Shown here piece by piece: positions 3,479-61,067 of a stretch of 64,000 nt of DNA (position 1 is the first letter of the stretch; the number at the start of each line of letters is the position of its first letter). The notes below the pieces were generated by a model. It saw only the letters and a list, made by a program, of their open reading frames with translations, had not been told where the DNA came from and ran no database searches. The position numbers and the translations under genes were made by a program. The stretch comes from an uncultured Campylobacter sp. Lineage in GTDB: Bacteria; Campylobacterota; Campylobacteria; Campylobacterales; Campylobacteraceae. The stretch spans positions 735 through 64,734 of the forward strand of contig CAUSAC010000005.1 of assembly GCA_963529615.1 (NCBI GenBank), written 5' to 3'.

Positions 3479-3717
3479 AGCTTACCTCTTTTCAATCTTG
3501 CGTTTTGGATTTTTAAGCTGCAGTTTTCGCTCTCCTCGTTTTGTAGGGCCTCAATGCCGAAGCGAAGGGCAGTTTTAAGCTTTTCGTTATCGCTTTTAAG
3601 CTTTAAAATTTTTTCTTCGCTCTTACGAAGTAAGGCGTAAATTTTAGAATTTTTTCGGATCGATAGAATAAGTAGTGCTGCAAAAAATAGCGCTAAAACG
3701 CCTAATGCTACGCTCAT
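3475..3717 (-). CDS. Small membrane-anchored coiled-coil protein, unknown function
   Basis: 80 aa with an N-terminal TM helix followed by a K/E-rich helix. ATGA overlaps at both ends (rpiB stop, apt start) suggest translational coupling. Confidence 0.5.
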   Translation of the reverse strand: MSVALGVLALFFAALLILSIRKNSKIYALLRKSEEKILKLKSDNEKLKTALRFGIEALQNEESENCSLKIQNARLKRGKL

Positions 3718-5087
3718 TGCTCGCCTCCTTCATTTGAATTTGCAAAGCGGCGCATAGTAGCAGAGGTTGCGCTAAAATAGGCAGAATTTAAGCTTTTAAA
3801 ATCTATGCTAGAAAGATTTGCACCCTTTAAATTTACGCTCGTAATAGCAGAATTCTCATCTGTTAAACCCGCACTAGCGCAATTTGCGTTTTCTGGCTTA
3901 ACGCTCATGCAAACAGAATTTTTAGCCTTGAAATTTATAATTGCTGGGTTCAAACCGACAAAATCTTTGCGGCTAGCTTTTTGAGCGAAATTTTTCTTAC
4001 AAACGCTCGCGCGCGTAAAATTTAACGTAGAATTTGCGCCAGTGGAATTTTTATCTAGCGGATTTTTCTCATTAAAGATTATCTTTGCGTGCGTAGAATC
4101 TAAATTTATATGACGTGCGCCACCAAAGCTTATCAAGGGATTCTTGCCGGTAAATAAGAAATTTTTATCGTTAAGGCTCCGCGCAAAATTTGACGCGAAA
4201 TCCGTGTCGATAGGATTTTTGCTAGAAGTGCTTTTGCCGGCGAAGCTTGATTTGGAATTTCGTCCGTTTAAATTAGCGTCACAGCTTTGTTCCGTAAAAT
4301 TTTGAGCGGAATTCTGCATGAAATTCTCCCCGTCAAATCCAAGCATGCAATTCACACTACCGCAAGCGCCTAGCTTTGCGACGCGCTTAATGTGCCTACC
4401 GCCCGCAAAATCGGTGCTAAAAAACGCCCTAATCATATCTCCGATCACCAGCGCGCCCATCAATCGCTCGCCGAAGGCTAGGACGTTAGCGTCGTTGTGT
4501 TCTCTAGCTAGTCTAGCGCTAGTCGCGTCATGACACAACGCGCAGCGGATGTGAGCGTGGCGATTTGCGGCGATGCTGATACCGATGCCCGTACCGCAAA
4601 TCAAAACGCCGTAAATGCCGTAGTCGGTGGAATTTAAAATTTTATCTTTGCTCGCATTCGAGCTTAAGGCTGCATTTACGCTGGTAGTCATGCTCTCGCT
4701 AGTGTTAAAATTTTGACGACTAGCGTTTTTGGCAGCGTTAAAATTTTCATTTTTCCCGCTACATTGCACGGCGTCGTTAAAATTTCCGCAGCCGTTTATA
4801 CTTGCGACAAAATTTTCGTTACCGCCCGCTTCGTAATTTTCCGCGGCTGCAGCGGAATTTATGCCGTCGTTTTCTTTAAAATTTTCACTTCGCGCGCAGG
4901 CTTCACATTCGGCTAAAATTTTATCCGCCAACGTGTCCGCAAAATCGGGATAGTCCACGCTCGCTTCGGCACTATACGTGCCAAGATCGACCGCTTCGTA
5001 ACCTAAAGCGGCGAGCGCTTTTTTAGCTTGTTCTTTGGCATGAAAGCCCGCGTGATCGCTCGCTATGAAAATTTTATTTATTTGCAT
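3714..5087 (-). CDS. rpiB: Ribose-5-phosphate isomerase B with a large internal low-complexity insert and a C-terminal extension of about 215 aa
   Basis: The RpiB core is clear: KIFIASDHAGF...VDYPDF, then VLICGTGIGISIAANR...HNDANVLAFGERL...GGRHIKRV. The ORF is 457 aa, against about 145-150 aa for typical RpiB. Confidence 0.8.
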   Translation of the reverse strand: MQINKIFIASDHAGFHAKEQAKKALAALGYEAVDLGTYSAEASVDYPDFADTLADKILAECEACARSENFKENDGINSAAAAENYEAGGNENFVASINGCGNFNDAVQCSGKNENFNAAKNASRQNFNTSESMTTSVNAALSSNASKDKILNSTDYGIYGVLICGTGIGISIAANRHAHIRCALCHDATSARLAREHNDANVLAFGERLMGALVIGDMIRAFFSTDFAGGRHIKRVAKLGACGSVNCMLGFDGENFMQNSAQNFTEQSCDANLNGRNSKSSFAGKSTSSKNPIDTDFASNFARSLNDKNFLFTGKNPLISFGGARHINLDSTHAKIIFNEKNPLDKNSTGANSTLNFTRASVCKKNFAQKASRKDFVGLNPAIINFKAKNSVCMSVKPENANCASAGLTDENSAITSVNLKGANLSSIDFKSLNSAYFSATSATMRRFANSNEGGEQ

Positions 5088-5942: not shown

Positions 5943-6800
5943 TTAGGCTCTTTGTCTTAAGCGATTTTTCGCCGATTTTATCGTGTTACTCAAAAGCATC
6001 GCAATCGTCATCGGCCCCACGCCCCCCGGTACGGGCGTGATGAACGAGCATTTCGGCGCGACTGCTTCGAAATCGACGTCGCCTCTTAGCTTGCCGTCCT
6101 CGCCGCGATTAATCCCCACATCGATCACCACTGCGCCTTGTTTTACCATATTGGCACCCACAAAATGCGCCCTACCGACCGCCACGACCAAAATGTCGGC
6201 GTCTGCGCAAATCCGCTTTAAGTCTTTCGTCTTGCTATGAGCGATAGTGACGGTGGCATCGGCATTTAATAGCAGGCTCGCCATCGGCTTTCCGACGATA
6301 TTGCTGCGACCCAGCACGACGGCATTTTTGCCCGCAATCTGCACGCCGTATTCCTCAAGTAGACGCATCACGCCAAGCGGAGTGCAAGGCACAAAACCGT
6401 CTGCAAGCCCGCTAGTAAGCTTGCCTATGTTTATCGCGCTAAATCCGTCCACGTCCTTCTGCGGGCTTATTTTTTCTAAAATTTTATTCATATCGATATG
6501 TTTTGGAAGCGGTAGCTGCACCAAGATGCCGTCGATGCTTTCGTCCTCGTTTAAATTTTCTATCAGTTCTAAAAGCGCCGCCTCGCCCACGTCGGAGCTC
6601 AAGCGGTGCGCTACGGATCGGATCCCACAGGCGGCGCAGGCTTTTTCCTTACTCGCGACATAGGTCTTGCTCGCCGCGTCCTCGCCTACTAAAATCACCG
6701 CCAGCGCGGGCTTTACGCCCTTTACGGTAAGATCAGAAACGGCCGATTTGATCTCATCTTTTACCTTGGCGCTTATGCTTTTGCCGTCGATTAAAGTCAT
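5943..6800 (-). CDS. folD: Bifunctional methylenetetrahydrofolate dehydrogenase/cyclohydrolase
   Basis: 285 aa with typical FolD blocks: VILVGEDAASKTYV, GILVQLPLP, VVLGRSNIVGKP, PVPGGVGPMT. The folD-lepB order matches C. jejuni. Confidence 0.95.
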   Translation of the reverse strand: MTLIDGKSISAKVKDEIKSAVSDLTVKGVKPALAVILVGEDAASKTYVASKEKACAACGIRSVAHRLSSDVGEAALLELIENLNEDESIDGILVQLPLPKHIDMNKILEKISPQKDVDGFSAINIGKLTSGLADGFVPCTPLGVMRLLEEYGVQIAGKNAVVLGRSNIVGKPMASLLLNADATVTIAHSKTKDLKRICADADILVVAVGRAHFVGANMVKQGAVVIDVGINRGEDGKLRGDVDFEAVAPKCSFITPVPGGVGPMTIAMLLSNTIKSAKNRLRQRA

Positions 6801-7094
6801 TTAAAGCCTTTTTGAAAAATAAGGCAAATGTTACCCTAAAATTTATAAAATTTAGATTTATTTAGCGGGATTTATGGGAATTTGAAAGAATTTTAAAAAG
6901 AATTTCGTCCTGCTCAAATAAGCCTAAATTTTATCGTCATTATAGACGGATGGACACCTTGGCGCCGCTACATTCAGGCCAAGACGCTGCTAAGGCTTGT
7001 ATTGTGGAATAAAGCCTTGTTTGAGCAAGAACTACGACCTTGTTATTTGCTCGCCTTTAAACGCTCCGTATCGTCGCCCGCCGCGCAATATACG

Positions 7095-7232
7095 CTATGC
7101 GTAATAGTAGCCTGTATAATGGTGGCTCGGTGCCTTATTTTGCTCTGGCTTTGGGACATCTTGCGGTCTGTTCCTAGAGCAGCCGCATATAAACAGCGCC
7201 GCACATAGAAATAAAACGATCTTTTGCACCAT
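7095..7232 (-). CDS. Small putative lipoprotein (45 aa)
   Basis: Internal ATG at 7232 preceded by AAAGGA. The product is MVQKIVLFLCAALFICGCSRN..., a signal peptide with a lipobox-like ICGC. The DUF4810 gene at 63323 has a similar FCGC. Confidence 0.35.
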   Translation of the reverse strand: MVQKIVLFLCAALFICGCSRNRPQDVPKPEQNKAPSHHYTGYYYA

Positions 7233-7570
7233 AGATCCTTTCAAAATCTTTATGATTTTATCTTTGAGTGGTTTCAAAATTTTACAAAATTTAGAAAAGC
7301 ACTCATAAAAATTTTATCCCCTTTGAAATTTAAAATTTTTGGCGAATTCTAACAACACAAATTTCGTCAAAATTTAGACTTCGCGCAAGTTAGAATCTCG
7401 CGAAAAAATCAAAATTCTGGCGATGCAAATCGTATTTAGTGCAATTTTACGCGATACGCGCCGTGCAAGATCGCGCAATCTCCGCCTCGCGCGCCGAAAT
7501 ACCGCGCCAAATAAGCCGCGCCGCTCTAAATTTCAAAATTTAGCTAAATTTTAAAGCACCGCGTTTAAAT

Positions 7571-8785
7571 TTACTCGTTGCGTAGTGTTTGCAGCACGTC
7601 GATCTGCGTGGCTTTTTTGGCAGGATACCACGACGAAAGCGCCACGATAAGCACCGCGCCGATTAAAATCATCGCCAAATCGCCTAGCGAGAGCTCCATC
7701 GGCAGCTTCGAACTTCCGTAAACATCGGCGGGCAGATTTACGATGTCGAAGCTTCCGAGTAGCCACACGCCGAATAGGCCCAAAATCAGCCCAAATATGA
7801 TGCCGCCGCCGCCGATCGTGGCTCCGAGCGCAAAAAAGGTTCTTTTGACCTCCTTTTTGCTGGCACCCAGGCTAAGTAAAAGCGCGATCTCTTGGCGGCG
7901 GTTCATCACGGTCATCAGAAGCGAACTTACGATATTTAGGCTCGCGACTAGGATTATTAGCATCAGCACGATGAAAAGCGCGCGCTTCTCAAGCGCAAGG
8001 GCACTGAAAAAATTGCCGTTTTGCTGCCACCAGCCCACGGCGCTAGTGCCGCTAGGGAGGCTTTTTTTGATGCGCTCCAGATCCTTAAACGGATCGTTTG
8101 AAAAAACATGCACGCCGTCGAATGTCCCCTCGTCGTAGCCTAAAATTTTGGCTAGATCGCTTGCGTCTGCGTAGGAATACGCCTTGTCGTAGGCGATCAG
8201 CCCCGAGCTGAAATCCGCGCGCACGTCAAAGCGCTTCATCTTGGGGATTAGCGCAAAGCCGCCCGGATCGCTCTTCGTAAAGATCATCGTGATCTTGCTG
8301 CCCTCATCCAGCATAAACTCGTCCTTGATCCCGCGCCCTATCATGATGCCGTAGTCCGTTAGATTGGCATCTTTGGCGCCTGCTGCGACGACGGAATTGA
8401 TGCGTTTTTCGTCGTTTAAATTTACGCCAAAAATCAGCCCACCCTCGAGCTTCTCGCCGCTTTTGGCGATGACTTGCGAGCTGATGTAGGGGCTAAAGAT
8501 CAGATCGGGGAAGTCCGCCCGCAGCCCGTCTATGTCGTCTTTTGAAATGCCGCCGCGAAAGTGGCTGTGGATCGTGATCGGGTAGTTCATCGTAAAGAGC
8601 TTGCGCTCGAATTCTTTATCAAAGCCGTTCATTATCGCCATCGCGACAATGAGAACCGTAAGCCCCACGCCGACGCCCAAGAACGCAAGCAGCGCCGAAA
8701 GCGTAATGAAGGGCTGAGAGCGATCGAATCTGAGATATTTGAATAATAAATACTTTACCAAAAAGCCGTCCTTGTAAAATTTCAC
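7571..8785 (-). CDS. Lipoprotein-releasing system permease, LolC/LolE (FtsX) family
   Basis: 404 aa with a conserved N-terminus LVKYLLFKYLRFD, four TM helices and a periplasmic MacB-like domain. The track start is GTG at 8785. A TTG at 8761 with an AAGGA 7 nt upstream is an alternative start. Confidence 0.85.
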   Translation of the reverse strand: MKFYKDGFLVKYLLFKYLRFDRSQPFITLSALLAFLGVGVGLTVLIVAMAIMNGFDKEFERKLFTMNYPITIHSHFRGGISKDDIDGLRADFPDLIFSPYISSQVIAKSGEKLEGGLIFGVNLNDEKRINSVVAAGAKDANLTDYGIMIGRGIKDEFMLDEGSKITMIFTKSDPGGFALIPKMKRFDVRADFSSGLIAYDKAYSYADASDLAKILGYDEGTFDGVHVFSNDPFKDLERIKKSLPSGTSAVGWWQQNGNFFSALALEKRALFIVLMLIILVASLNIVSSLLMTVMNRRQEIALLLSLGASKKEVKRTFFALGATIGGGGIIFGLILGLFGVWLLGSFDIVNLPADVYGSSKLPMELSLGDLAMILIGAVLIVALSSWYPAKKATQIDVLQTLRNE

Positions 8786-8814
8786 ATAAAATTTAGCGCT
8801 AAATTCTATGTGAA
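8781..8814. repeat. 34-bp near-perfect palindrome over the Lol permease start codon
   Basis: TTCACATAAAATTTAGCGCTAAATTCTATGTGAA, with one mismatched pair. It covers the GTG at 8785. Confidence 0.8.
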
Positions 8815-9489
8815 ATTTTAAGTATTTTGGAATTTTAAAATTCCAAAAACGGGTTTTGCGGCGTCAAATATAGAAGCTCCAGCCTGCTTTAAAATTTAAA
8901 ATCGCGCCGAAATCTATTTATACGCAATGAAATTCGCCCCCAAGATATCCGATACGGTAAATCAAACATATCGTCTTGCCAAAACCTCGAAATTTTAAAC
9001 CCGAATTCTAAATTTTAAAATTTCAAACGCCTCGAAATTTTAAAATTTTAGAAATTTAAAACTTTTTTAGAATTTTGAAATTCTTAAAATTTAAAGGCGG
9101 AGTCTGCTTGCAAGCTCGCCCGTAATCGCATAAATTTAAAATTTCAAATGCCACGCAGTGTCCTAGCCGTACGCTAAATTTAAGTATCACGCGCTGATTG
9201 ACTTGCGTTTTGCCGCACCGGCGCACCGCAACGGCGCTACGAAAACAAGTAGCCAAAGGCGCCGAGTGTGCTTTGAAATTTTAAAATTTCAAAACTAAAA
9301 TTACACCCTCTCGCACAGCTTTGCGCGCCGTCCGCGCGGCCTCGCGATCAAACTCCCCTTTAAAATTTTATGACGCCTTCCGCCCTCGACCGATCCGCTA
9401 AATACAAAAGCAAGATTGAAAAGCGCCGATCGCGCAATGCTCACAATCAAGATCACTGATCGCACGATACTTACGACCGATCGCCGCGC
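8786..9489. repeat. RAATTY-word-rich spacer between the Lol permease gene and secA
   Basis: Dense AAATTTTAAAATTT, GGAATTTTAAAATTCC and GAATTC words alternate with GC-rich words. The only long ORF translates to low-complexity sequence. Confidence 0.8.
9275..9290. repeat. Perfect 16-bp palindrome GAAATTTTAAAATTTC (type copy)
   Basis: It is its own reverse complement. Near-identical copies or one-off variants start at 8829, 9009, 9034, 18867, 23573, 23709, 23919, 38960 and 44011. Confidence 0.9.
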
Positions 9490-12108
9490 CTACCTCGCAA
9501 AGCCGCCTTTTTTCGGACCGCCCTTGCCGTGGCAGTCTTTGTATTTTTTGCCGCTGCCGCAAGGGCAAGGATCGTTTCGCTTAGGCTTTTTGTCGCCAAA
9601 CTCTTCTGCGCCCTTTAGCTGTGCTTCATTCGTGCTTGCGGCGGCGAGCTCTTTGGCGTTTGAGCTCTCCATGCGCTCCTGCATCGCGCGCTGTTCGGCT
9701 TCGATCTCCTCCCTAGATTTAAACTGGATCGAATGCAGCAAGCGGATGCTGTCGGATTTGAGGCGCATCACAAGCTCCATAAAAAGATTGTAGCTCTCCT
9801 TTTTATACTCCGTAAGCGGGTCTTTGTGGTTATAGCCGCGAAGTCCGATGCCCGCCTTTAGGATATCCATCTGATACAGATGCTCCCGCCAGTCGCGATC
9901 GACGATCTGCAGATAAAGCATCTTTTCGATACTTTTGCGCTGCTGCGGATCGATCGGCGCCATCTTGTTTTCATACGAAACGGCAAGCGCGCCGATGATC
10001 TTTTCTTTCAGCTCTTTGAAATCATCGACCTTCTCAAGCTCGCTGTTTTCGAGCACCTCGCCCGTTTCTTGAGCGATTTTGGCGACGATCGGGAATTTAT
10101 CGACCTCTTTGATATTTGCGCCGTCGAAAATTTCAAGCTCCTCAAGCACGCTAGAGATGTACTCCTCGCGGTTTTGAATGATTTTATCTTTCAGATCGTA
10201 GTCGGGGTCTAAAAGCTCGTTGCGATATTTATAGATCGTCTTGCGCTGCTCGTTTGCGACGTCGTCGTATTCTAGGATATTTTTACGCGCTTCAAAGTGC
10301 AAGCTCTCGACCTTTTTCTGCGCGTTCTCTACTGCGCGCGAAACCATGCCTGATTCGATATGTTCGCCGTCTTTCAAACCCAAGCGATCCATGATATTTT
10401 TAATCTTGTCGCTGCCAAAAATTCTAAGCAGATTATCCTCCAAGCTTAAGAAAAATCTACTCTCGCCCGGATCACCTTGGCGCCCGCTTCGTCCGCGGAG
10501 CTGATTATCGATACGGCGACTTTCGTGGCGCTCGGTACCTAAAATATACAGCCCACCCAAAGCGCGCACTTCGTCGTCTATGCGGATATCCACGCCGCGT
10601 CCCGCCATATTCGTAGCGATCGTAACTGCGCCCTTTACGCCTGCGTCTTTGATGATCTGCGCTTCACGCTCGTGATTTTTGGCGTTTAGCACGGAGTGCG
10701 CGATGTTTTCTTTAACCAAAAGCTCGTGCAGCTTCTCGCTCTTTTCAATCGATGCCGTACCCACTAGCACGGGCTGACCTTTGGAATTTAGCCGCTTGAT
10801 CTCATTTATGACGGCGTCAAATTTCTCGCGCTCGGTTTTGTAGATAAGATCGTTTTGATCCTTTCTGATGACCGGCACATTCGTAGGGATAGAGACCACT
10901 TCGAGTTTGTAAATTTGAGAAAATTCCGTTGCTTCCGTCTGTGCCGTACCCGTCATACCGGCGAGTTTTTCGTAAAGACGGAAGTAGTTTTGAAAGGTAA
11001 TGTCGGCAAGAGTTTGACTCTCCTCTTGGATCTGCACGCCCTCTTTAGCTTCAAGAGCCTGATGGAGCCCTTCGCTAAATCTGCGTCCCTCACTAAGACG
11101 ACCCGTAAATTCATCCACGATTATGACCTGCCCGTCGCGCACGACGTAGTGCACGTCCTTTTCAAATAGATAATTCGCCTTAAGTGCTTGATCAAGATAG
11201 TGGCTAAGCACGGCATTTTCGAGACTATAGAGATTATCGACGCCAAAAAGCTTCTCGGCTTTTGAAATTCCTGCCTCCGTAATCAAAACGGCGCGGTTCT
11301 TCTCATCTACGGTAAAATCACCCGTCGCCTTGCCTTTCGGATCGGCTGGCGCCTCGCCGCGGATCATTTGGCGAGCTACTTCGTTTGCCTTGATGTAGCC
11401 GTCTAGAGTGCGATTCGTAGGACCTGAGATGATTAGCGGCGTCCTGGCTTCGTCGATTAAGATGCTATCAACTTCATCGACGATTACGAAATTATGCCCA
11501 CGCTGCACCTTTTCATCCGCGCTAAATTTCATATTATCACGCAGGTAGTCAAAGCCAAACTCGTTGTTTGTGCCATAAGTGATGTCGCACGCGTATGCAG
11601 CCTTGCGCTTGGCGTCATCGTATTCGCCGCCTACGATCACACCGGTACTAAGCCCTAAAAATTCATATAGCTCGCCCATTTGCGCAGCATCGCGCTTGGC
11701 CAGGTAGTCGTTTACGGTCACGACATGCACGCCCTTGCCTTCCATCGCATTTAGCACTACCGCCAAGGTCGCTACGAGGGTCTTTCCTTCGCCCGTTTTC
11801 ATCTCGGCAATCGCGCCGTCGTTTAGCACCAAACCGCCTATTAGTTGAACGTCGAAGTGGCGCATATTTAGCACTCTTTTGCCCGCCTCTCGCACGATAG
11901 CAAACACTTCATTAAGCACGTCATCCGTGCTCTTTTCGCCCGCGCGAACTTGCGCTCTTAACGCTTCAAATTCCGCCTTAAGCGCCGCATCGTCCATCGA
12001 CGCGTAGTTTTCTTCAAGCGCACTGATCTGTGCTGCGCGCTTGGCGTATTGTTTGACGATCCTATCGTTTTTAGTACCGAAAATCCCGTGGATGACCTTT
12101 TTAAACAT
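9490..12108 (-). CDS. secA: Preprotein translocase ATPase SecA
   Basis: Starts [16 protein letters not shown]. It has the Walker A-type motif MKTGEGKT, a DEAD-like [19 protein letters not shown], and the C-terminal zinc motif [15 protein letters not shown] moved the start to the ATG at 12108. Confidence 0.97.
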
Positions 12109-12228
12109 CTCAAACCTTAGTTTTAAAATTTTAACCGCGCATATTAACATATTTTTAGTTTCTATTTAATTAAATCCTAGAAAAACGGCTATAATACGCA
12201 CAAATTTTCAAAAATAAAGGCAAAATTT

Positions 12229-12747: not shown

Positions 12748-13311
12748 GTGAGGCTACTTTTCGTCTGTCACGGCAACATCTGCCGCTCGCCGATGGCGCA
12801 GTCCGTGATGCAAAATTTTATTAATCAAAGCGAGCTTAAAGTACGCGTGAGCGTAGATTCTGCGGCGACACACACCGACGAGATCGGCTCGCCGCCCTAC
12901 TACGAAACGCAGCGCGTGCTAAAAGAGCAAAAGGTGCCGCTCGTAGCGCATCGCGCCGTGCAGGTCACGCCCGCAGACTACGAGCGCTACGATCTGATAC
13001 TTTGCATGGATGATGAAAATATGCGCTCGCTGGGGCGAATTTTTCGCGGTAAGGATATGGCTAAGGTAAAATTTCTTTTAGAATTTGCAGGGGAAAATTT
13101 TACAGACTGCGATGCGCGAAATTTTAAACAAGGCTCAGCAAAACAAACCGGCTTAAATTTAAAAGGCGCCGGTTCAAATTTAACCCATCCCGAACACCTA
13201 CAAATCGCAGATCCATACTACACGCGCGATTTTGAGCGCTGCTACGCAGATATCAAGCGCGGCTGCGAGGGACTCTTGCGATACATTAAAAATTCAGACG
13301 GAATTTGCTAA
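12748..13311 (+). CDS. Low-molecular-weight protein-tyrosine phosphatase with an in-frame insert
   Basis: GTG start. It has the CX5R(S) P-loop LFVCHGNICRSP and a DPYY acid loop. An extra segment of about 38 aa sits between them. Confidence 0.85.
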   Translation: MRLLFVCHGNICRSPMAQSVMQNFINQSELKVRVSVDSAATHTDEIGSPPYYETQRVLKEQKVPLVAHRAVQVTPADYERYDLILCMDDENMRSLGRIFRGKDMAKVKFLLEFAGENFTDCDARNFKQGSAKQTGLNLKGAGSNLTHPEHLQIADPYYTRDFERCYADIKRGCEGLLRYIKNSDGIC

Positions 13312-16977: not shown

Positions 16978-17334
16978 CTACCTCGTAAGCTCCCTACTCT
17001 GCTCGATTAGATCCTCAATCTGTTCGCGCGGCACCGCATCAAGGCAGACGCTGATCCAGTGCTTTTTATTCATATGATAGGCTGCAAAAATTCCCTTTTC
17101 ATCGCGCAAAATCGCCGCCAAATCAGGCGAAACTTTTAAATTTATCACATCGCTTGAGCCAGGAAGCGCGCGACCGAGTTTTTCATTAGCAAGCCCGCGC
17201 ATCAGAAGCGCAAACCACTTGCGCTTCCCTCCTGCGTGACGAAAAACCGCGAAATTGGGATATTCATCCCACAGATACTCGCCATCCGCGCCGTAGCGCT
17301 GCTTCATTAGTTTTAGGACGCTGCTGAAGTTCAT
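16978..17334 (-). CDS. MmcQ/YjbR-family DNA-binding protein
   Basis: Starts MNFSSVLKLMKQRYG at the ATG at 17334, 3 nt after the rarA stop. It has a YjbR-like core: YPNFAVFRHAGGKRKWFALLM...YHMNKKHWISV. Confidence 0.8.
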   Translation of the reverse strand: MNFSSVLKLMKQRYGADGEYLWDEYPNFAVFRHAGGKRKWFALLMRGLANEKLGRALPGSSDVINLKVSPDLAAILRDEKGIFAAYHMNKKHWISVCLDAVPREQIEDLIEQSRELTR

Positions 17335-17336
17335 TC

Positions 17337-18533
17337 TCACTCCTTGATATCGATCTTTTCTTTGCGCAATCGCGCCAGCCACTCATCCAGCGTCTTTTCA
17401 AAGCCAATCCCCTTGCTTTCGTAAAATTTCGCCGCCTCGCTCATATAGGCTTGCTCGACCCAGCCACCGAAGTCGTGCGGGTATTTGTAGTCTGCGATCT
17501 GCTTGTCCGAGTTGATGAGATAGCGCGGCGTAGGTAGCGGTGCAGCGGAGCGGACGAACTTTAAAGCGGCGTTGATGCCCAAATACGCGGCGTTTGATTT
17601 GGGGCTGTGCGCCAGATAGATCGCGCATTGCCCTAAGATAATGCGAGCTTCGGGGTAGCCGATCTTGCTGACGGCAGTTAGCGTACTAACCGCGATATTT
17701 AGGGCGTTTGGATTGGCATTGCCGATATCCTCGCTAGCTAGGATCACCATCCTGCGCGCGATAAAATCCGCGCTCTCGCCCGCATCTATCAGCCTCGCGA
17801 CGTAATACAGCGCGGCGTCGGCGTCGCTGCCGCGTAGGCTTTTTATCATCGCGCTGGCAAGCTCATAATGCAGATCATCGCTGCTAACGCCTGCAGCCAC
17901 GGCATTTGCGCGCAGCGTGCGAAGCGTATCCAGCGTAATGGCGCTGTCTGCCAAAAGCGCAAATTCCAGCAGATTTAGCATACTCCTTGCATCGCCGCTG
18001 CTGGAGTTTAGCAGGTATTTTCGTGCCTCTTCGTCCATCTCAAAACCGATCTCGCCCTGCACCCGCGCCAAAAGCGCCTCCAAATCCTCGTAGCTAAGCG
18101 GTTCGAACTCAAAGATCATCGAGCGCGAGCGGATGCCGCTACTTAGCACGAACTGCGGATTTTCCGTCGTCGCGCCGATGATAATCGCGGCGTAGTTCTC
18201 CATCGGGATTAGCAGCACCTCCTGCTGCGTCTTGCTGAGGCGGTGGATCTCATCGATGAAAATGAGCGGCTTGATGAGCGAGCCTGCATGCGAGGATAGA
18301 ATTTTGCGGATATCCTCGACCTTCAGGCTCGTGGCGTCAAGCTCGTAAAAATCGTAGTTCAGCTCGCTTGCGATCACGCGCGCCATCGTCGTTTTGCCGC
18401 TGCCTGCGGCGCCGAAAAATATACTGTGCGGGATGCTGCCTGCGGCGACGAATTTTTTAAAAACCGCTACGATCTTGCCCTGCCCCACGATCTGCTCTAA
18501 GCTTTTGGGGCGAAATTTCAAGCTCAAACTCAT
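17337..18533 (-). CDS. rarA: Replication-associated recombination protein A (AAA+ ATPase)
   Basis: 398 aa with FRPKSLEQIVGQ, Walker A GAAGSGKTT, Walker B IFIDEIHR, and the MgsA C-terminal domain (ALYYVARLIDAGE). Confidence 0.93.
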   Translation of the reverse strand: MSLSLKFRPKSLEQIVGQGKIVAVFKKFVAAGSIPHSIFFGAAGSGKTTMARVIASELNYDFYELDATSLKVEDIRKILSSHAGSLIKPLIFIDEIHRLSKTQQEVLLIPMENYAAIIIGATTENPQFVLSSGIRSRSMIFEFEPLSYEDLEALLARVQGEIGFEMDEEARKYLLNSSSGDARSMLNLLEFALLADSAITLDTLRTLRANAVAAGVSSDDLHYELASAMIKSLRGSDADAALYYVARLIDAGESADFIARRMVILASEDIGNANPNALNIAVSTLTAVSKIGYPEARIILGQCAIYLAHSPKSNAAYLGINAALKFVRSAAPLPTPRYLINSDKQIADYKYPHDFGGWVEQAYMSEAAKFYESKGIGFEKTLDEWLARLRKEKIDIKE

Positions 18534-19234
18534 TTTGCAACCTTAAAAATTTTGCCTCGATGATAGCGTTTTTATGATTAAATTTTGAAATTCGGCTAAA
18601 TTTAAAGAGCGGTTTGGGTTTTATACGGCGAGGATTTGAAATTTATGCACGGCGCGGGCTTAGAATTTGAGGCGCGCAGTGAGTTTTAAAATTTCAGTAG
18701 AATTTTAAAATTTTGTGCCGCACGCGCGGGCTGGCGATATAAAATTTTGCGGCGAAAACAGATCGCGCAGATTTGGCGGGCCTAGGCAGCTTTAAATTTA
18801 ATGCCCTGCGTTTCGCGGTCGCGCCGTCATACATAGCGCGCCCGCAATCAGCTCGGCGCGCAAGATGAAATTTTAAAATTTAGCCCTATTTTGGGGCTAA
18901 ATTTTATCTCGCAGCGAGCGACGAGCTGATAAATCAACAAATTAATAAACGCAAAATCAGCAAAGCTAAAAAATCGTTGCCCTTTCATAAAGTCATCGCG
19001 CAACCATCGCGACTATCGCCTCGCTCGCGCAGAAACTATCGTATTAATTCTCGCGCCTACGTAACGCGAAAATGTAAAACATAATCGCGTAATCGTCTCA
19101 ATAACCCGCGCGATTGCGCAAAACTCATCGCGCCAATTCCGGCGCCAGCGTGAAATTTAATCTCGCGAAGCTGCACGTCTGCGTAAAATGCGTAAAATTA
19201 CCGCGCTAACGCCGCACTGGCGCAAAACCGCCGT
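18534..19234. repeat. RAATTY-word-rich spacer between rarA and cysK
   Basis: It uses the same vocabulary. The right half is rich in ATCGCG-type words. Confidence 0.7.
18876..18904. repeat. Second copy of the AAATTTAGCCC-N7-GGGCTAAATTT hairpin
   Basis: The 11-bp arms are identical to those at 28751-28779, with a different loop (tattttg). It lies about 330 nt downstream of cysK. Confidence 0.6.
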
Positions 19235-23306: not shown

Positions 23307-24238
23307 AGCAGCCCGGCTTTTTAGGCATAGCTAATTAAAAGCAGTATTGCAGCATGGCAAAAATCACGCTTAACTCTTAAAACAGAGCAAATTCCATCCT
23401 CGCGCGCAACGTAAGCGAGGTTAAATTTAAAAATAATCCTTGCGCGAAAAGTTCCGCTAGCACGAGAAACTGGGATTTCATCTGCGCAAGTGGAATTTAA
23501 AATTTTAAAGTATCTTTTGTAGTGCGCGATTTTATCTGCGTGAAAAATGAAATTCTATCTGTAAAAGGTGGCGAAATTTTAAAATTTAAAGACGCCTTCT
23601 CGCGGCTTAATTTAAAATTTGCCTCGAAAGCCAGACTTAAAATTTAATGCCAAACGCGATTTTGGAATTTTGCTGCGTCCATGGAGTTTCAAATTCTCGC
23701 AAAGCGGCGGAATTTTAAAATTTTAAAACGCCTGATCTGTGTTATGCACGCGAGTAGATTTTGCATAAGTAGAATTTATCCGCCGTGCAGAAATCAAAAT
23801 TTTACCGCACAAGCAAAGCTAAAATCCTCTCCGCCTACGCAAAATTCAAGAATTTTACCGCTCAAGCAAAGCGAAATTCTATCCACTCACGCGAAATCTA
23901 AAATTTTACTCGCGCCACAAAATTTTAAAATTTCCGTAAAAATCAAGCTGTTTATCTGTAAATTTAAAATTCCGCCTTCTGCAAAGCTTCGCGTTTAATC
24001 CGCCACGCGACCAAGATTAAATTTTTAAATTCCGCTCGCTCTGCCTATCTCGCAAACAAGTAAAATTTTAAAATTGCGAAATCTAAAGCCCAAAATCCCG
24101 CGCTTAAGCTTAAAATTTACCGCACGCAAGCGCAAAATCTGCGCAATCGCTCCTGTTTAAAAACCCCGATAGTTTGCCGCGCCCTAACCTAAATTAAATT
24201 TTACATTTGCTATAATCGCGAAATTTTAAGGAAGGTAA
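23307..24238. repeat. RAATTY-word-rich spacer of about 930 bp
   Basis: It uses the same vocabulary and contains three degenerate units of about 52 bp, starting at 23798, 23851 and 23902. Confidence 0.8.
24208..24216 (+). promoter_or_regulatory. Extended -10 element upstream of the small ORF-ispB-hemA-proS operon
   Basis: TGcTATAAT, 22 nt upstream of the ATG at 24239. Similar gcTATAAT elements occur at 22005, 12190 and 51616. Confidence 0.45.
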
Positions 24239-24484: not shown

Positions 24485-25476
24485 TGCAAGATCAAATTGA
24501 TTTAATTATGAAAAGCTTCATCGCAGACTGCGGATATGAGCCCGCTAGCGAGATGTTTGACAGGCTAAGCCCCGGCAAAAAACTGCGCTCCAAGCTGCTG
24601 CTAAACATCGCGCAAAAGGATGAAAAATCGCTGCACCTGTGCGCTATCATCGAGCTCATTCAAGCTGCGAGCCTGCTGCACGACGACGTCATCGACGAAA
24701 GCTCGATGCGCCGCGGCAAACCCTCGATCAACGCTACCTACGGCTCCAAAAACGCCGTGATGCTGGGCGACATACTCTATTCCAAGGCATACTTCGAGCT
24801 TAGCAAATTTGAAAGCCGTATCGCCGCTGCGCTTTCGCTCGCCGTCACAAAGCTAGCCGTGGGCGAGCTGATGGACGTGAGCTTAAGCAACGATTTCAAC
24901 TACGATGCGAGCAAATATCTGCAGATGATCTATCTAAAAACCTCCGCTCTCATAGAGGAGGTCGCGCGCTGCGGGGCTTTTTTGAAATTCGGCGGCGCAG
25001 AAAATCGCGGCGAAATTTCAGATATTAACGGCGCAAAAAACGAGGGCAGGAATCCGAACGCCGCGAAAGATCATGATAAAATTTCAAGCGCGAGCGCAAA
25101 ATTCGGCGAATACGGCAAAAACCTTGGGCTTGCCTTTCAGATTATCGACGATATTTTAGACGTTACGCAAAGCTCAGAAGCGCTCGGTAAGCCGAGCCTT
25201 AGTGATTTTGCGGAGGGCAAAACCACCCTGCCCTACATCTATTTATACGAAAATTTAAATGATTCCGAGCGGCAAAAGCTAAAATCATTTTTTAAAAAAC
25301 AGCTTTGCCAGAGCGAAATTTCATGGATCAAGGCGAAGTTTAGCGAGCACGGCATCATCGAGCGCTGTATAAACGAAGCTCGCGCCTACGGGCAAAAGGC
25401 GCTTGAAGCCGTGGCGGAATTTAAAAACGACAAGCTAGAGCAAATCGTGCGAGATATGATAGATAGGGAGTTTTGA
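24484..25476 (+). CDS. ispB: Polyprenyl (octaprenyl) diphosphate synthase with an in-frame insert
   Basis: First DDxxD is LLHDDVIDES and second is QIIDDILD. An extra G/N/K-rich segment of about 40 aa lies between them. Confidence 0.88.
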   Translation: MQDQIDLIMKSFIADCGYEPASEMFDRLSPGKKLRSKLLLNIAQKDEKSLHLCAIIELIQAASLLHDDVIDESSMRRGKPSINATYGSKNAVMLGDILYSKAYFELSKFESRIAAALSLAVTKLAVGELMDVSLSNDFNYDASKYLQMIYLKTSALIEEVARCGAFLKFGGAENRGEISDINGAKNEGRNPNAAKDHDKISSASAKFGEYGKNLGLAFQIIDDILDVTQSSEALGKPSLSDFAEGKTTLPYIYLYENLNDSERQKLKSFFKKQLCQSEISWIKAKFSEHGIIERCINEARAYGQKALEAVAEFKNDKLEQIVRDMIDREF

Positions 25477-27032
25477 TGGCGTATATGAGCGTGAGCTTCA
25501 CCCACAAAAACACGGACATCACGGTGCGCGAGAAGCTGTCGTTTTCAAACGACGTGCGCAAGAAAGAAATTTTGCGCCTTTTAGCTTCAAACTCCGCAAT
25601 AGAGGAGTGTTTGGTGCTTAGCACCTGCAACCGCGTAGAAATTTTTACCGTCGTAAGCGACTTTGACGAAGCGCAAAAATTCGTGCTTTTGGCACTTTCG
25701 CGCATTAGCGGCGTGAGCTTTGAAGAGCTGCAAAACCTAGCCGATATATATGAGGATCGCGGCGCGATACACCACCTTTTCGCCGTCGCAGCATCCCTTG
25801 ATAGCCTCGTAGTGGGCGAAACGCAGATCGTAGGTCAGCTCAAAGACGCCTATAAATTCGCAATGCAAAACGCTCGCGCCGGCGCTCAAATCGCAAAAGC
25901 CATAGATGAAGCGCTAAAGTGCGCGGCGCGCATCCGCAATCAAACCGAAATTTCAAAAAATCCAATCTCGGTCTCAAGCGTCGCCGTAGCGATGGCAAAA
26001 GACAGGCTGGGCTCCTTGCAGGGCGCGGACGCCGTGGTAGTGGGCGCGGGAGAGATGAGCGAGCTAGCGTGCAAACACCTGCTCGCAAACGGCGCGAATA
26101 TCACGATCTTAAATCGAAATTTAGCCGGCGCGCAGAGGCTAGCCGCCTCGCTACTTGGCGAGAATTCCTTGGATGCGAAAGATTGCGCGGATGAAAATCC
26201 CGGCACAGGAAAAAATTCAGACGGCTTAAATTCCGAAAATGTCGCGAATTTCGCGGGCGAAAATGTCGCGCAAAAACAAAATTCCAAAGACGGCGTAAAT
26301 TTTAATAAAGAGATTTTCGCAGACGGCAATGAATCTCGCATAGCAGGCGAAAATTCCAAAGGCGATAAAAATTCTGCCGCCTTCGTGAATTCTGCCGCGC
26401 AGGCACAATCCCGCATCAAAATCGATAGCCTTGATAATCTCAAAAAATATCTGAACGTAAATAGCCTATTCTTCAGCGCTACAGGCTCGCAAGAGCCGAT
26501 CATTACCGATAGCTTGCTTGAGCCCAAAAGCTTTAAGCGATATTTTTTCGATATAGCCGTGCCGCGCGACGTAGAGCTTAGTCAGAGCGAGGACGTCGAG
26601 GTTTACAGCGTCGATGATTTGGAGGAGATCGTAAAGAAAAATTTGATCCTTCGCGAGGAGCAGGCGCAGATCGCTTACTCGATCGTGGCGAAATGCACGA
26701 ATGAATTTTTCAAATGGCTCAAGGCAGCGGCATCCACGCCGATCATCAAGGCTTTGCGCCAAAGCGCGAAACAAGTAGCCGAGCTAGAGCTAGCCAAGGC
26801 GCTTAAAAAGGGCTATCTAAAGCGCAGCGATGCACAGGAGGCGCGCAAGCTGATCCATCAGGTTTTTAAAGCGTTCCTGCACGCTCCGACGGTAAATTTA
26901 AAAAACCTTGGCGACGCGGATAATGCCGATAACGCGGTAAACGCGCTGGTCGAAATTTTTGAACTGCAAGAAAACTACGAAAAATTTTTAAATCAAGAAA
27001 ACGAGAAAAAGGACAGACAGAATGAAATTTAG
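25476..27032 (+). CDS. hemA: Glutamyl-tRNA reductase with an in-frame insert of about 85 aa
   Basis: SFTHKNTDITVREKLSF, STCNRVEIF (catalytic Cys) and the NADPH site VVVGAGEMSE. The ATG at 25476 overlaps the ispB stop (TGATG). The length is about 518 aa; C. jejuni HemA is roughly 430 aa as I recall. Confidence 0.93.
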   Translation: MAYMSVSFTHKNTDITVREKLSFSNDVRKKEILRLLASNSAIEECLVLSTCNRVEIFTVVSDFDEAQKFVLLALSRISGVSFEELQNLADIYEDRGAIHHLFAVAASLDSLVVGETQIVGQLKDAYKFAMQNARAGAQIAKAIDEALKCAARIRNQTEISKNPISVSSVAVAMAKDRLGSLQGADAVVVGAGEMSELACKHLLANGANITILNRNLAGAQRLAASLLGENSLDAKDCADENPGTGKNSDGLNSENVANFAGENVAQKQNSKDGVNFNKEIFADGNESRIAGENSKGDKNSAAFVNSAAQAQSRIKIDSLDNLKKYLNVNSLFFSATGSQEPIITDSLLEPKSFKRYFFDIAVPRDVELSQSEDVEVYSVDDLEEIVKKNLILREEQAQIAYSIVAKCTNEFFKWLKAAASTPIIKALRQSAKQVAELELAKALKKGYLKRSDAQEARKLIHQVFKAFLHAPTVNLKNLGDADNADNAVNALVEIFELQENYEKFLNQENEKKDRQNEI

Positions 27033-38590: not shown

Positions 38591-39043
38591 ACGCCCATCC
38601 TGTTTCGTTGGAATAATTTTGTGATTATATTATTTTGTAAATTAAATTTCACGAATTTTAGGCGCTAAATCGGGTCGAATTTCAAATTTAATAGCGGCGC
38701 AGACGGGGCGAAATTTTGGAATTTAGAAAGAGTGGAAAAGGCAAATTTAAAATTTAGCCATAAATTTAAAACGGACGGGATGTTCGGATTTAAAATTTTA
38801 AAGTGCAGATTTGTTTCGACCAAACGCGGCACGGAATTTTTAACGTAAAATTTTGGCTTGAAATTTTACCACGCGAGGCTTGGATTGAATTTATAAAATT
38901 TTTTGGAATTTTATCGTAGCGCGAAGCAACGCCAGCGTAAATTTTAAATTCTACGTTACGAAATTTTAAAATTTAGCCGTAAATTTAGGGCGGGCGGAAT
39001 CTCGATTATAAAATTCTAAAATCCCGCCCGCATAAAATAAATT
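38591..39043. repeat. RAATTY-word-rich spacer
   Basis: It uses the same vocabulary, for example GAAATTTTAAAATTTA at 38960-38975. Confidence 0.7.
38990..39031 (-). terminator. GC-rich hairpin downstream of the ComEA-like gene
   Basis: GCGGGCGG...26-nt loop...CCGCCCGC, 13 nt after the stop at 39044. Confidence 0.35.
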
Positions 39044-39766
39044 TTAAAACCCTCTATCTACCTGCACGCCTACGCCCACACTAGCGCAGTTGCCGCTTTG
39101 CGGATCGCAGTCGCCGAAGCTTGTGACGCTACTGGATCTTTTTGAGCGGATCGTTCCCATATGCATAGGCACCGGCATGTTACGGCGCGAGCTTCCGCCG
39201 ATTTCGCTATCGCTCATACTATTAGAACTTCTCCTGCGAGAATAATCATCGCGCGGAGGTGGCGGTGGCGGAGGAGGTGGTTTTATACCTCCGTGCGGAG
39301 GTGGTGGCATGCCGCCAGGAGGCGGGGGAGGAGGCGGCATCATGTCGCCGTGCCTACCATATGCTCGCGGAGGAGGCGGCGGTAAAGTACCGGTCTCTGT
39401 GATCGTGATGCCATTGCCGTAATTTTCAACGCGTTTGTAAGTATAGCCTCCGTAAACCGTGCGGGTGCGGGTCTTTTCGACTACGACTATATCGCGATCA
39501 GGCTGCACCGGCTGCTGCACATTAGCTCTAGGCGATATTTCAAAGCTCTTCTGCAGTTTAGCAGTATCGTAACTTGCAAAGCCGTTGATGCCCTTTAGCT
39601 CATCTGCACTTGAAATTTCGCGCTTTTGGCGGTATTGCATAAGCATATCCGCCCTGCCCGCATCAAGCCCACCGATCGTCATCAGCTCGTAGCGACTAGC
39701 TTCATTTATGTTGATTTTCGCCGCGGCGAGGCTCACTAAAAGAGCCAAAATCACTAAATTTTTCAT
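39044..39766 (-). CDS. Secreted ComEA-like helix-hairpin-helix protein fused to a polyproline-rich region
   Basis: ATG at 39766 behind AAAGGGG. A signal peptide is followed by KININEASRYELMTIGGLDAGRADMLMQYR (ComEA-type HhH). Then come PPPPP...PPPPPPP...PPPPPPPPP runs and an S/R-rich tail. Confidence 0.6.
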   Translation of the reverse strand: MKNLVILALLVSLAAAKININEASRYELMTIGGLDAGRADMLMQYRQKREISSADELKGINGFASYDTAKLQKSFEISPRANVQQPVQPDRDIVVVEKTRTRTVYGGYTYKRVENYGNGITITETGTLPPPPPRAYGRHGDMMPPPPPPPGGMPPPPHGGIKPPPPPPPPPRDDYSRRRSSNSMSDSEIGGSSRRNMPVPMHMGTIRSKRSSSVTSFGDCDPQSGNCASVGVGVQVDRGF

Positions 39767-39879
39767 GTGCGCCCCTTTGTTGGAAGTTACCAAATTCTAA
39801 ACCCTCACGATAAATCTTTGATTAACACGCAAGCAAAATTTTGCTACAATTGCCTATCTTATTTCAAAAGGATCAACCG

Positions 39880-42969: not shown

Positions 42970-43184
42970 AACCCCCCCACTATCCCCACTTGCACGTTAG
43001 AGGTGGCAAAGCTTTGTTTTTAAACAAATCTTTGCTGGTTAAATTTAATAAATTTGGTTTCAAATTTGACCGCAAAATTCCAAAACAGCTCCTTATTGTG
43101 AAATTTACCGGATAATAAGGCATAAAATTTTAAAATTTAGCGCAAGCCGGGTTTTGCCGTAAAGATTTATTAAAGGAGCGAACG

Positions 43185-43478
43185 ATGAGCGATTTGCTAA
43201 ATTCACAAGGCACGCAAGAGCAAGAGGCGCCGTATCCCGATACGAAATTTATCAAATTTTTCGGGCGACTTTACGCGGCAGTTTTTGCGCTGTTTGCGAT
43301 CACGGCGCTTAGCGTATTCGAGCTACCCGAAAATATTTTAGACGTAAGCGCAGCATGCGCGGACTTCGTTAGATTTATGAAGCGGTTTTTTCCAAACATC
43401 GCCGCAATCGGCAAAATAAGCCCACATACGCAGCTTGCGGAATTTTACGTCGCGGCATTGTGTGGGTACCTATTTTAA
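43185..43478 (+). CDS. Hypothetical membrane protein, possibly the 5' part of a disrupted gene
   Basis: 97 aa with one clear TM helix. It is in the same frame as ORF 43557-43760, and two stops lie between them. Confidence 0.3.
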   Translation: MSDLLNSQGTQEQEAPYPDTKFIKFFGRLYAAVFALFAITALSVFELPENILDVSAACADFVRFMKRFFPNIAAIGKISPHTQLAEFYVAALCGYLF

Positions 43479-43556
43479 CGGCTTTCGCGCTAAGCTGCGT
43501 GTATTGCCACATTCTTATACAAAAAAGAGCTTCCCGCCGTCAAGACGCAGCTAATT

Positions 43557-43760
43557 ATGCTTATCGGCATACCTTTTATCTATTGGCTTCTAAATAATTA
43601 TTTCTACGCCGATTTTGCCGTAAACGGCATCCCACACAGAGTAGGCAACGGGCGGACGTTTCCTACTTTTGCGAGCAGAGAAAGCCTTTTTGGTTGGCTA
43701 TCGTTTTTTGGAGGCGGCTCAATGTTTTTTTGGTATGTCTGTTCCGATTTTATTCAGTAA
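43557..43760 (+). CDS. Hypothetical membrane protein, possibly the 3' part of a disrupted gene
   Basis: 67 aa and hydrophobic, with no convincing RBS of its own. Confidence 0.25.
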   Translation: MLIGIPFIYWLLNNYFYADFAVNGIPHRVGNGRTFPTFASRESLFGWLSFFGGGSMFFWYVCSDFIQ

Positions 43761-44042
43761 TATAGTCCACTGGATATCTATCGAGAAATAAAAGCTAAAT
43801 TTTATGAAATCATGGACTAATAAAATTCCGCACCAATAACTTTCAGGGTCATTTTACGAGCGCAAAGCGAGCGAGCGATAAAATTCTGCGCTCCGTTTTA
43901 GAACAAAAACAAGCGACGATTAAATTTAAACGCTCCGGCAATTAGAGCCTTTTTGCGCGGAATTTAAGCGAGCAAACTACGATTAAATTTAAACCGTAAG
44001 CGGCCGCTTTTAAATTTTAAAATTTCACTAAATTTTAAAATT

Positions 44043-60527: not shown

Positions 60528-61067
60528 GATCGCTCCTTTTGCTAAATTTGCCGATCGAATTTTACTGCGTTTCGGCTAAATTTACGGATATTTTGTCAGA
60601 TATTTGCGACGTTTTACGCGCCCCGTCGCCGCAAGCGCAAATCGGACTTTTAAAATTTAGCCGATTTGCGATACGCACGCGGCGGTGTGAGCGCATATTT
60701 GAAAAAAGGTATGAGAATTTTTAGTAGAAAAATGCGTAAAATTTTACGACTTAAATTTTACTATTTTAAGGCCTCTTTGCTTCTTTGTAGAAATTTACGG
60801 TTTTAAATTTAGCTCGTCGCAAAGAGTAAAATTTTAGCAATATCTATAAATTTAAAATTTCCCACGCCTTTTGTTTGCGCGCCTCAAATTTTTGCTCAAA
60901 TTCCGCGCGCCTTTGCAGCTCGTTTTTTGCCTCTATTTTGGTGTATCCCGAGCCTCGCCCCAGAAAATATATATAGCTCGTATTCTAAAATTTCGTTATA
61001 AACGGCACTTTGTCATTATTAAATTTACAAATTTTGACGTCGTCTGATCGGACGAGCGAAATTTCGT
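60528..61067. repeat. RAATTY-word-rich spacer
   Basis: It uses the same vocabulary: GCTAAATTT, AAAATTTAGCC, TAAATTTAAAATTTC. Confidence 0.7.

Follow-up and report, generated by a model that had tools for sequence, protein, structure and literature searches.

Enrichment of the hexamer RAATTY in the spacers and genes of a GC-rich Campylobacter lineage, and its probable link to the CtsM uptake-tag system

The spacer at positions 8786–9489 of a 64,000-nucleotide stretch of DNA from an uncultured Campylobacter (the window), which separates secA from a lolC-like gene, raises the question of why one short palindrome, the degenerate hexamer RAATTY (R, purine; Y, pyrimidine), recurs in it so densely and what keeps it there. 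The spacer contains 23 RAATTY sites, corresponding to 32.7 per kb, compared with 1.1 in mononucleotide, 5.2 in dinucleotide-preserving and 6.5 in trinucleotide-preserving shuffles (z = 8–21). A sequence-only reading of the window had called its spacers saturated with RAATTY, and the counts bear this out: a recount recovers the ten sites that it placed at 8990–9105, and the words that it quoted are present, for example GGAATTTTAAAATTCC at 8829–8844 and AAATTTTAAAATTT, which is found three times, at 9010, 9035 and 9276. Each of the eleven gaps that it listed is enriched. Together these gaps hold 168 sites (~30 per kb), a number reached in 0 of 300 shuffles, with expectations of 11.4 (mononucleotide), 39.8 ± 5.4 (dinucleotide) and 56.1 ± 5.7 (trinucleotide) and z = 20–24; tetranucleotide-preserving shuffles of short spacers scarcely randomise the sequence and are therefore uninformative. 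Its estimate of about one site per kb in equiprobable sequence is likewise sound, the expectation at the GC content of the window (47.7%) being 1.17 per kb. We consider it probable, though far from assured, that these spacers show most plainly an enrichment of RAATTY that extends over the chromosome and the genus and is upheld by the CtsM uptake-tag system known from Campylobacter jejuni.

In the window as a whole, RAATTY occurs at 10.5 sites per kb, approximately ninefold above the base-composition expectation. The 669 sites compare with 75, 220 and 184 expected under Markov models of orders 0, 1 and 2, respectively, whereas models of orders 3 and 4 contain sub-words of the hexamer and absorb the signal. 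AAATTT is the commonest hexamer of the window, with 440 copies, and leads by a factor of two. When all sixteen NAATTN words are compared on both strands under the second-order model, the four RAATTY words, AAATTT, AAATTC, GAATTT and GAATTC, show observed/expected ratios of 4.1, 3.1, 3.1 and 2.2, whereas the twelve other words are all depleted (0.19–0.80), and this split recurs separately in coding and non-coding DNA. Specifically, a pyrimidine follows AAATT in 94% of cases, and 85% of the NAATTN words in the window are RAATTY. The secA loci of 79 unrelated bacteria served as composition controls, and those with a fair number of NAATTN words have shares of approximately 0.2–0.6. The enriched entity is, as had been proposed, RAATTY itself, with both the R and the Y flanks required. 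When the 64 palindromic hexamers are ranked, AAATTT comes first and GAATTC second, and most others are depleted; such depletion of palindromes is usual where restriction systems are active. Additionally, AAAAAA (0.31–0.75 of expectation) and AAAAAT (0.83–1.44) are not enriched, and the purine-run/pyrimidine-run words AAGTTT and AAACTT are strongly depleted, indicating that A-tract structure alone is insufficient to account for the signal.

Genes take part in this enrichment. With our gene set, RAATTY occurs at 7.3 sites per kb in coding and 21 per kb in non-coding DNA, the higher density of the spacers reflecting mainly their greater AT content and weaker constraint. The order-2 observed/expected ratio of AAATTT is 4.4 in coding versus 3.2 in non-coding DNA, and the idea that the hexamer was amplified specifically in dispensable spacer DNA does not hold, genes being equally enriched. 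For the 51 open reading frames (ORFs) of at least 120 codons, synonymous codons were shuffled within each gene with protein and codon usage kept. These ORFs contain 362 RAATTY sites, spread over the three frames as 131/102/129, compared with 148.5 ± 8.2 in the synonymous shuffles (z = 26) and 91.6 under codon-order shuffling, and the excess is seen in 50 of the 51 genes. Measured against the synonymous shuffles, no other of the 4096 hexamers deviates as strongly as AAATTT (z = 25.6), and the next ranks are mostly its overlapping extensions. Individual codons carry the same imprint. Lys-Phe pairs are written AAA-TTY in 86 of 90 cases, with AAG-TTY used 4 times versus 32 expected. Isoleucine, which is encoded overall by ATC 717 times versus ATT 287 times in the window, takes ATT in 102 of 113 cases (90%) in the RA_Y context, where it completes RAATTY, and in 7 of 56 cases (12%) in the RA_R context, where the next codon starts with R. 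The sites lie in all three frames and outnumber those in synonymous shuffles, and the signal therefore acts on DNA, not on protein.

In the predicted rpiB ORF, RAATTY-rich in-frame inserts form a loop insert and a C-terminal extension, both rich in ENF, KNF, QNF and NS; ENF, KNF and QNF are RAATTY words translated. The orthologue is 174 aa long in the relatives L081 and L085 (SecA 81% identical) and 312 aa in L083 (SecA 95% identical). Taken together, spacers, all three codon frames and lineage-specific in-gene inserts show a preference for RAATTY that operates at the DNA level, and other AATT words are avoided. Separately, the hemA (glutamyl-tRNA reductase) ORF at 25473–27032 (+) encodes 519 aa with its Shikimate_DH domain in two stretches and holds 13.5 RAATTY per kb, which suggests that it carries a further in-frame insert.

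Is this a peculiarity of one lineage? The SecA encoded in the window is 99% identical to that of a metagenome-assembled genome named 'uncultured Campylobacter sp.', 81% to those of the Campylobacter sp. VBCF/JMF isolates, 78% to that of C. hominis and 75% to that of C. geochelonis; the host genus is Campylobacter, in which the CtsM/RAATTY system occurs. Approximately 22 kb around secA were compared from seven further relatives. Throughout nine Campylobacter chromosomal loci, spanning 32–50% GC, RAATTY is found at 8.5–13.4 sites per kb. With rising GC, the other NAATTN words drop from 8.7 to 1.4 per kb and the RAATTY share climbs from 0.58 to 0.88. The density of ~10 per kb thus holds while the rest of the genome has shifted from ~32% to ~50% GC. 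Two Sulfurimonas loci (33–34% GC) are unenriched, with 2.3–3.1 RAATTY per kb and a share of NAATTN of 0.24–0.29. The isoleucine codon switch is present in nine of nine Campylobacter loci, with ATT fractions of 0.75–0.98 (RA_Y) versus 0.05–0.35 (RA_R), and was looked for in the Sulfurimonas loci, where it is absent. The sequence-only reading had suggested comparing related species for conserved site density: the density is indeed conserved, but as a trait of the genus rather than of this lineage, and amplification by this lineage is not borne out, since non-coding densities in all seven relatives tested are 13–40 per kb and the window value lies inside that range. In C. jejuni, 27,514 methylatable RAATTY positions correspond to 8.4 sites per kb (PMC4294202), and 28,482 and 24,750 such positions are given for C. 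coli (PMC8627207) and C. fetus (PMC13436318), respectively.

Conjugative plasmids behave differently. In the C. jejuni 81-176 plasmids pTet (L088) and pVir (L089), with 26–29% GC, RAATTY occurs at 5.6–6.0 per kb, which amounts to no enrichment in these two plasmids (order-2 observed/expected 0.8–1.0; share of NAATTN 0.34–0.37), and the isoleucine switch is almost nil, at 0.58–0.63 (RA_Y) versus 0.45–0.47 (RA_R). A mutational bias acting on all DNA in Campylobacter cells should affect plasmids as well, whereas a process working through chromosomal recombination would not. A prophage-like stretch of C. geochelonis, with 6.7 versus 9.4 RAATTY per kb, is only modestly lower and is indecisive.

The sites are also conserved. 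When the window is aligned to L001 (93% DNA identity) and L083 (84–87%), non-coding substitutions inside versus outside RAATTY amount to 3.9% versus 10.1% for L001 and 5.6% versus 17.4% for L083; that is, non-coding RAATTY positions change 2.5–3 times more slowly than their neighbours. In coding DNA, the values inside RAATTY versus all other positions are 2.0% versus 5.2% (L001) and 6.3% versus 11.5% (L083), with 5.4% and 14.0%, respectively, at other A/T positions. The fraction of non-coding words fully conserved in L083 is 0.75 for AAATTT, compared with 0.39 overall, 0.40 for AAAAAT and 0.11 for AAAAAA. The behaviour of an uptake or methylation tag, which had been proposed for RAATTY, is consistent with these results: the presence in all frames, the synonymous shuffles and the conservation suggest that the hexamer is selected or driven at the DNA level.

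What, then, is particular to the spacer between secA and the lolC-like gene? This gap measures 15–41 bp in C. geochelonis, L087, L081 and L085, 141–204 bp in L086 and C. hominis, and 704 bp in the window versus 842 bp in L083. Alignment of the window spacer to L001 and L083 shows indels whose lengths are not divisible by three. A 98-bp tandem duplication lies in the same spacer of L083, at ~12760–12960 (aligned to ~9330 of the window), from which it follows that local duplication enlarges spacers. Coding density is ~78–84% in the window and 76% in L083, compared with 81–96% in other relatives; the lower coding density and the longer secA–lolC gap together indicate that the lineage has expanded its intergenic DNA. 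Non-coding GC content is ~0.45 in L083 and 0.34–0.46 in the larger of the eleven gaps, compared with 0.18–0.32 in other relatives, and it is because the background DNA is GC-rich here that the spacers look like GC-rich words alternating with RAATTY words. It is by its GC-rich background and its enlarged spacers that the lineage differs.

What force could uphold such a density? In C. jejuni, uptake is confined to DNA carrying the RA(m6)ATTY mark of the orphan methylase CtsM (PMC10046745, PMC8468864). Either CtsM or methylated RAATTY has also been reported for C. coli, C. peloridis, C. subantarcticus, C. fetus and C. hyointestinalis, so that the methylase or the methylation is on record for six or more species of the genus (PMC8437040, PMC13436318). 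We infer that the force acting on the window is the CtsM system as in C. jejuni. In this mechanism, an orphan adenine methyltransferase of the type of CtsM (Cj0208 in C. jejuni) would mark RAATTY, and the competence machinery would import only DNA bearing the methylated mark; uptake and recombination would favour fragments and alleles richer in RAATTY. The outcome would be a transformation-linked drive combined with purifying selection, which would hold the density on the chromosome and not on conjugative plasmids. Between C. jejuni and the window, the hexamer with its degenerate flanks, the genus and the chromosomal location are the same, and the densities are 8.4 versus 10.5 sites per kb. 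The two differ in GC content (~30% versus ~48%), in that the window lineage lies near C. hominis, and in that its methylase, methylation and uptake dependence are predicted ones; the excess over composition is ~2.3-fold in C. jejuni versus ~9-fold in the window because GC content differs. The enrichment in the window most likely represents the RAATTY tag system of C. jejuni.

A more far-reaching form of this explanation, which we put forward tentatively and at less than even odds, is that the genus-wide density of ~10 per kb, whatever the base composition, is set by transformation-linked drive on an epigenetically read tag, which in this lineage would dictate synonymous codons, fill new spacers and the ENF/KNF/QNF inserts, and leave 11% of A/T bases inside RAATTY. 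If this is true, no genome so far would bear a plainer imprint of an uptake signal that depends on methylation and not on sequence alone.

Several observations weigh against an uptake-tag origin. In the work of Beauchamp and co-workers from 2017, one methylated site was reportedly enough for transformation, which weakens the argument for a pressure towards 10 sites per kb. RAATTY sites are clustered, the coefficient of variation of inter-site gaps being 1.27 versus 0.99 for random placement, and even spacing is thereby ruled out. In genes, GAATTC is not enriched (14 versus 14.7 from synonymous shuffles), and the signal is weighted to AAATTT. The plasmid control relies on plasmids of C. jejuni, a species other than the host of the window, and the conservation was measured on BLAST alignments that are partly anchored by conserved words. 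In spacer composites, words overlapping AAATTT are as conserved as AAATTT itself, and the constrained unit in spacers may therefore exceed six bases. Among the ORFs scanned within the 64-kb window, none is a methyltransferase gene. Finally, the ORF at 39044–39793, which is possibly a competence DNA-binding protein, matches Pfam HHH_3 with E = 3.6e-6, but the NCBIfam comEA models match it below their cut-offs; the C. jejuni ComEA homologue, Cj0011c, is much shorter. This ORF is the sole sign of competence in the window, any further competence genes lying beyond it. As for GAATTC, it is rare in the relatives L081–L087 (1–5 sites per 22 kb), and it is AAATTT, AAATTC and GAATTT that carry the RAATTY excess. 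The cause might be an EcoRI-type system present in some lineages; C. fetus is reported to have an EcoRI-like methylase (PMC13436318).

Other explanations share part of this evidence. RAATTY methylation by an orphan methylase could serve chromosome organisation, replication timing or gene regulation, with the sites kept by organism-level selection. Enrichment, specificity and conservation would fit any function that is read by a RAATTY-specific protein, and spacers that contain promoters have the highest density of sites and composite palindromes. In Spirochaetaceae and Akkermansia muciniphila, orphan methyltransferases likewise methylate RAATTY, with no uptake role reported in the cited papers (PMC4752239; bioRxiv 10.1101/2022.11.07.515285; PMC12118455). 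We nevertheless regard a role outside uptake as unlikely, because regulatory motifs of the Dam type do not usually show a several-fold excess across the genome, as illustrated here by GATC, which is enriched at order 1 (1.98-fold) but stands at expectation at order 2 (1.07) and whose local density at 9300–9489 is unexceptional, and because plasmids residing in Campylobacter cells, pTet and pVir, lack the bias. A ctsM mutant of C. jejuni is said to grow normally (Beauchamp and co-workers), which also counts against such a role. A vocabulary that is independent of methylation, either AATT blocks with a narrow minor groove to which a nucleoid protein binds, or curved DNA of the form (A3-4T3-4)n upstream of promoters, would account for the R and Y flanks as avoidance of flexible YR steps beside AATT, for the predominance of AAATTT over GAATTC and for the conservation of entire composite words, and composites such as GAAATTTTAAAATTTC, mostly found in spacers, resemble classical bent A4T4 DNA. 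However, the A-tracts without YR steps noted above (AAAAAA, AAAAAT, AAGTTT and AAACTT) are unenriched or depleted, GAATTT and AAATTC are enriched 2–3-fold although they break a pure A-tract, genes are enriched equally and in all frames, and neither Sulfurimonas nor compositionally similar Campylobacter plasmids show the bias; a structural origin is thus distinctly unlikely. A-tract curved DNA of the UP-element type is rejected in particular, there being no general AnTn enrichment and no confinement to promoters.

A functionless origin fares no better. A neutral, context-dependent bias of mutation or repair in Campylobacter replication could make and keep RAATTY, as an absorbing word would likewise show high frequency and low apparent divergence, and the uniformity of the signal over 50 of 51 genes would suit it. 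It is nonetheless very improbable: such a bias would need to match the CtsM recognition sequence exactly, degenerate flanks included, the density remains constant across an 18-point GC shift, and the signal is missing from pTet and pVir, although Campylobacter cells replicate them. The proposal that the spacers are copies of mobile or repetitive elements (of the miniature inverted-repeat transposable element, MITE, or repetitive extragenic palindrome, REP, type) or decayed genes carrying RAATTY words can appeal to the fact that they are lineage-specific insertions compared with relatives having SecA 75–81% identical, and to the tandem duplication in L083. Yet an all-against-all BLAST of 21 spacers returns only 20–70-nt matches of A/T words and no longer common unit, which largely refutes a MITE/REP-like family. 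Moreover, the composite 14-mer RAATTTTAAAATTY, present in 15 copies, 14 of them intergenic, has different GC-rich flanks at every copy, housekeeping genes are equally enriched, and the spacer open reading frames are NFK-rich and resemble chance translations. We give this proposal next to no credence.

A terminator role for inverted RAATTY pairs, which the sequence-only reading had raised, is unsupported by what the spacers contain. A consensus scan of 6700–9600 finds no intrinsic-terminator-like site in the spacers 6801–7570 and 8786–9489, with counts not above those in shuffles. The spacer palindromes have stems of A/T only and zero-length loops; their RNA could fold into A/U hairpins at -9 to -15 kcal/mol (z -3.4 to -4.2), with no GC stem and no U tail. 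One palindrome pair, at 44012–44043, begins at a stop codon. Canonical intrinsic terminators are rejected by the scan of the two spacers together with the A/T-only stems. A search of the window against Rfam at gathering thresholds returned no match.

The positions of the features discussed here are collected in the table.

Table. Location of RAATTY-rich features and of a ComEA-like ORF in the window
Feature	Position	Strand	Remarks
Window-wide RAATTY enrichment	1–64000		669 sites; 6.3% of all bases, 11% of A/T bases
rpiB ORF, 457 aa	3714–5087	-	RAATTY-rich in-frame inserts ~4623–4910 and 3717–4370; 19.7 sites/kb
Spacer, lolC-like gene to folD	6801–7570		18 RAATTY sites (23/kb); equivalent gap ~350 bp in L081, ~1.9 kb in L083
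Non-coding spacer	8786–9489		between secA (9490–12150, -) and lolC-like FtsX permease gene (7571–8785, -)
Palindrome ATAAAATTTAGC/GCTAAATTCTAT	8786–8809		adjoins lolC-like start codon; conserved in L001 and L083
GGAATTTTAAAATTCC	8829–8844		core of perfect 24-nt palindrome 8825–8848; 45 nt upstream of lolC-like start codon; invariant in three genomes
Densest RAATTY cluster, overlapping A/T palindromes	8990–9105		10 sites in ~110 nt
TTTGAAATTTTAAAATTTCAAA	9272–9293		perfect 22-nt palindrome with two RAATTY sites
Spacer	18534–19234		15 RAATTY sites
Spacer	23307–24238		29 RAATTY sites
Spacer downstream of ComEA-like ORF	38591–39043		22 RAATTY sites (48.6/kb)
ORF, signal peptide and ComEA-like helix-hairpin-helix domain, then poly-proline and Ser/Arg-rich tail	39044–39793	-	Pfam HHH_3
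Spacer	60528–61067		18 RAATTY sites

Some further features of the window deserve mention. The palindromes ATAAAATTTAGCGCTAAATTCTAT and TTTTGGAATTTTAAAATTCCAAAA, at 8786–8848 directly upstream of the lolC-like start codon, are near-invariant in three genomes and may constitute an operator or promoter element. Two stretches that scans for long ORFs alone call gaps contain apparently real small proteins: an ORF at 16978–17382 (-), encoding 118–134 aa and starting MNFSSVLKLMKQRYGADGEYLWDEYPNF, and two hydrophobic small ORFs at 43134–43757 (+). GGCC (0.26 of expectation), GCCGGC, CGGCCG, TGGCCA, GAAGA, CATG and GTAC are strongly depleted in the window, synonymous shuffles included; the depletion of the GGCC-containing words, GAAGA, CATG and GTAC looks like avoidance of restriction targets.

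How does RAATTY relate to the uptake signals and iterated palindromes already known? Beauchamp and co-workers are said to have described it, in their 2017 abstract, as an overrepresented 6-bp sequence. In C. jejuni it has been called a palindromic uptake sequence that recurs about every 60 bp (bioRxiv 10.1101/2024.09.10.611283), and the earlier impression that such amplification was undescribed is thereby corrected. The DNA uptake sequences (DUS) of Neisseria and the uptake signal sequences (USS) of Pasteurellaceae, to which RAATTY had been likened, likewise mark self-DNA and are in excess on the chromosome; they lie within genes, whose peptides they shape, as well as between genes, and their upkeep by transformation-linked drive is likewise plausible. 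The likeness extends to the logic of a self-DNA tag, but not to length, direct reading, terminator pairs or even spacing: DUS and USS are non-palindromic, 9–12 nt long, read directly as sequence, present at ~1 per kb and often arranged as inverted pairs in GC-containing terminators, whereas RAATTY is a 6-nt degenerate palindrome at ~10 per kb, clustered and, in C. jejuni, read only when methylated. A DUS/USS-type motif is accordingly rejected for the window, in which the enriched unit is the 6-nt degenerate palindrome and the 14-nt composite has only 15 copies. The cyanobacterial HIP1 (GCGATCGC) resembles RAATTY as a highly iterated short palindrome that is a methyltransferase target and lies in genes and spacers, and it is reported to raise transformation in a methylation-dependent manner (bioRxiv 10.1101/2024.09.10.611283). 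It differs in motif and phylum, its role is debated, and no homology is implied.

In the literature searched, we did not find the extension to a GC-rich lineage, the constancy of density across GC content, the flank specificity in all frames with its codon-context imprint, the better conservation of the sites or the contrast with plasmids. To our knowledge, RAATTY is the sole uptake tag known to be read through methylation, with functional proof in one species only. The present findings widen the likely range of this system to include the part of the genus near C. hominis. They also provide two indices of the pressure that can be read from DNA directly, namely the RAATTY share of NAATTN words and the switch of the isoleucine codon ATT between the RA_Y and RA_R contexts. 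These indices could help to assign metagenomic contigs to Campylobacter chromosomes versus mobile DNA, and could inform the design of transforming DNA for species that are unculturable or hard to transform.

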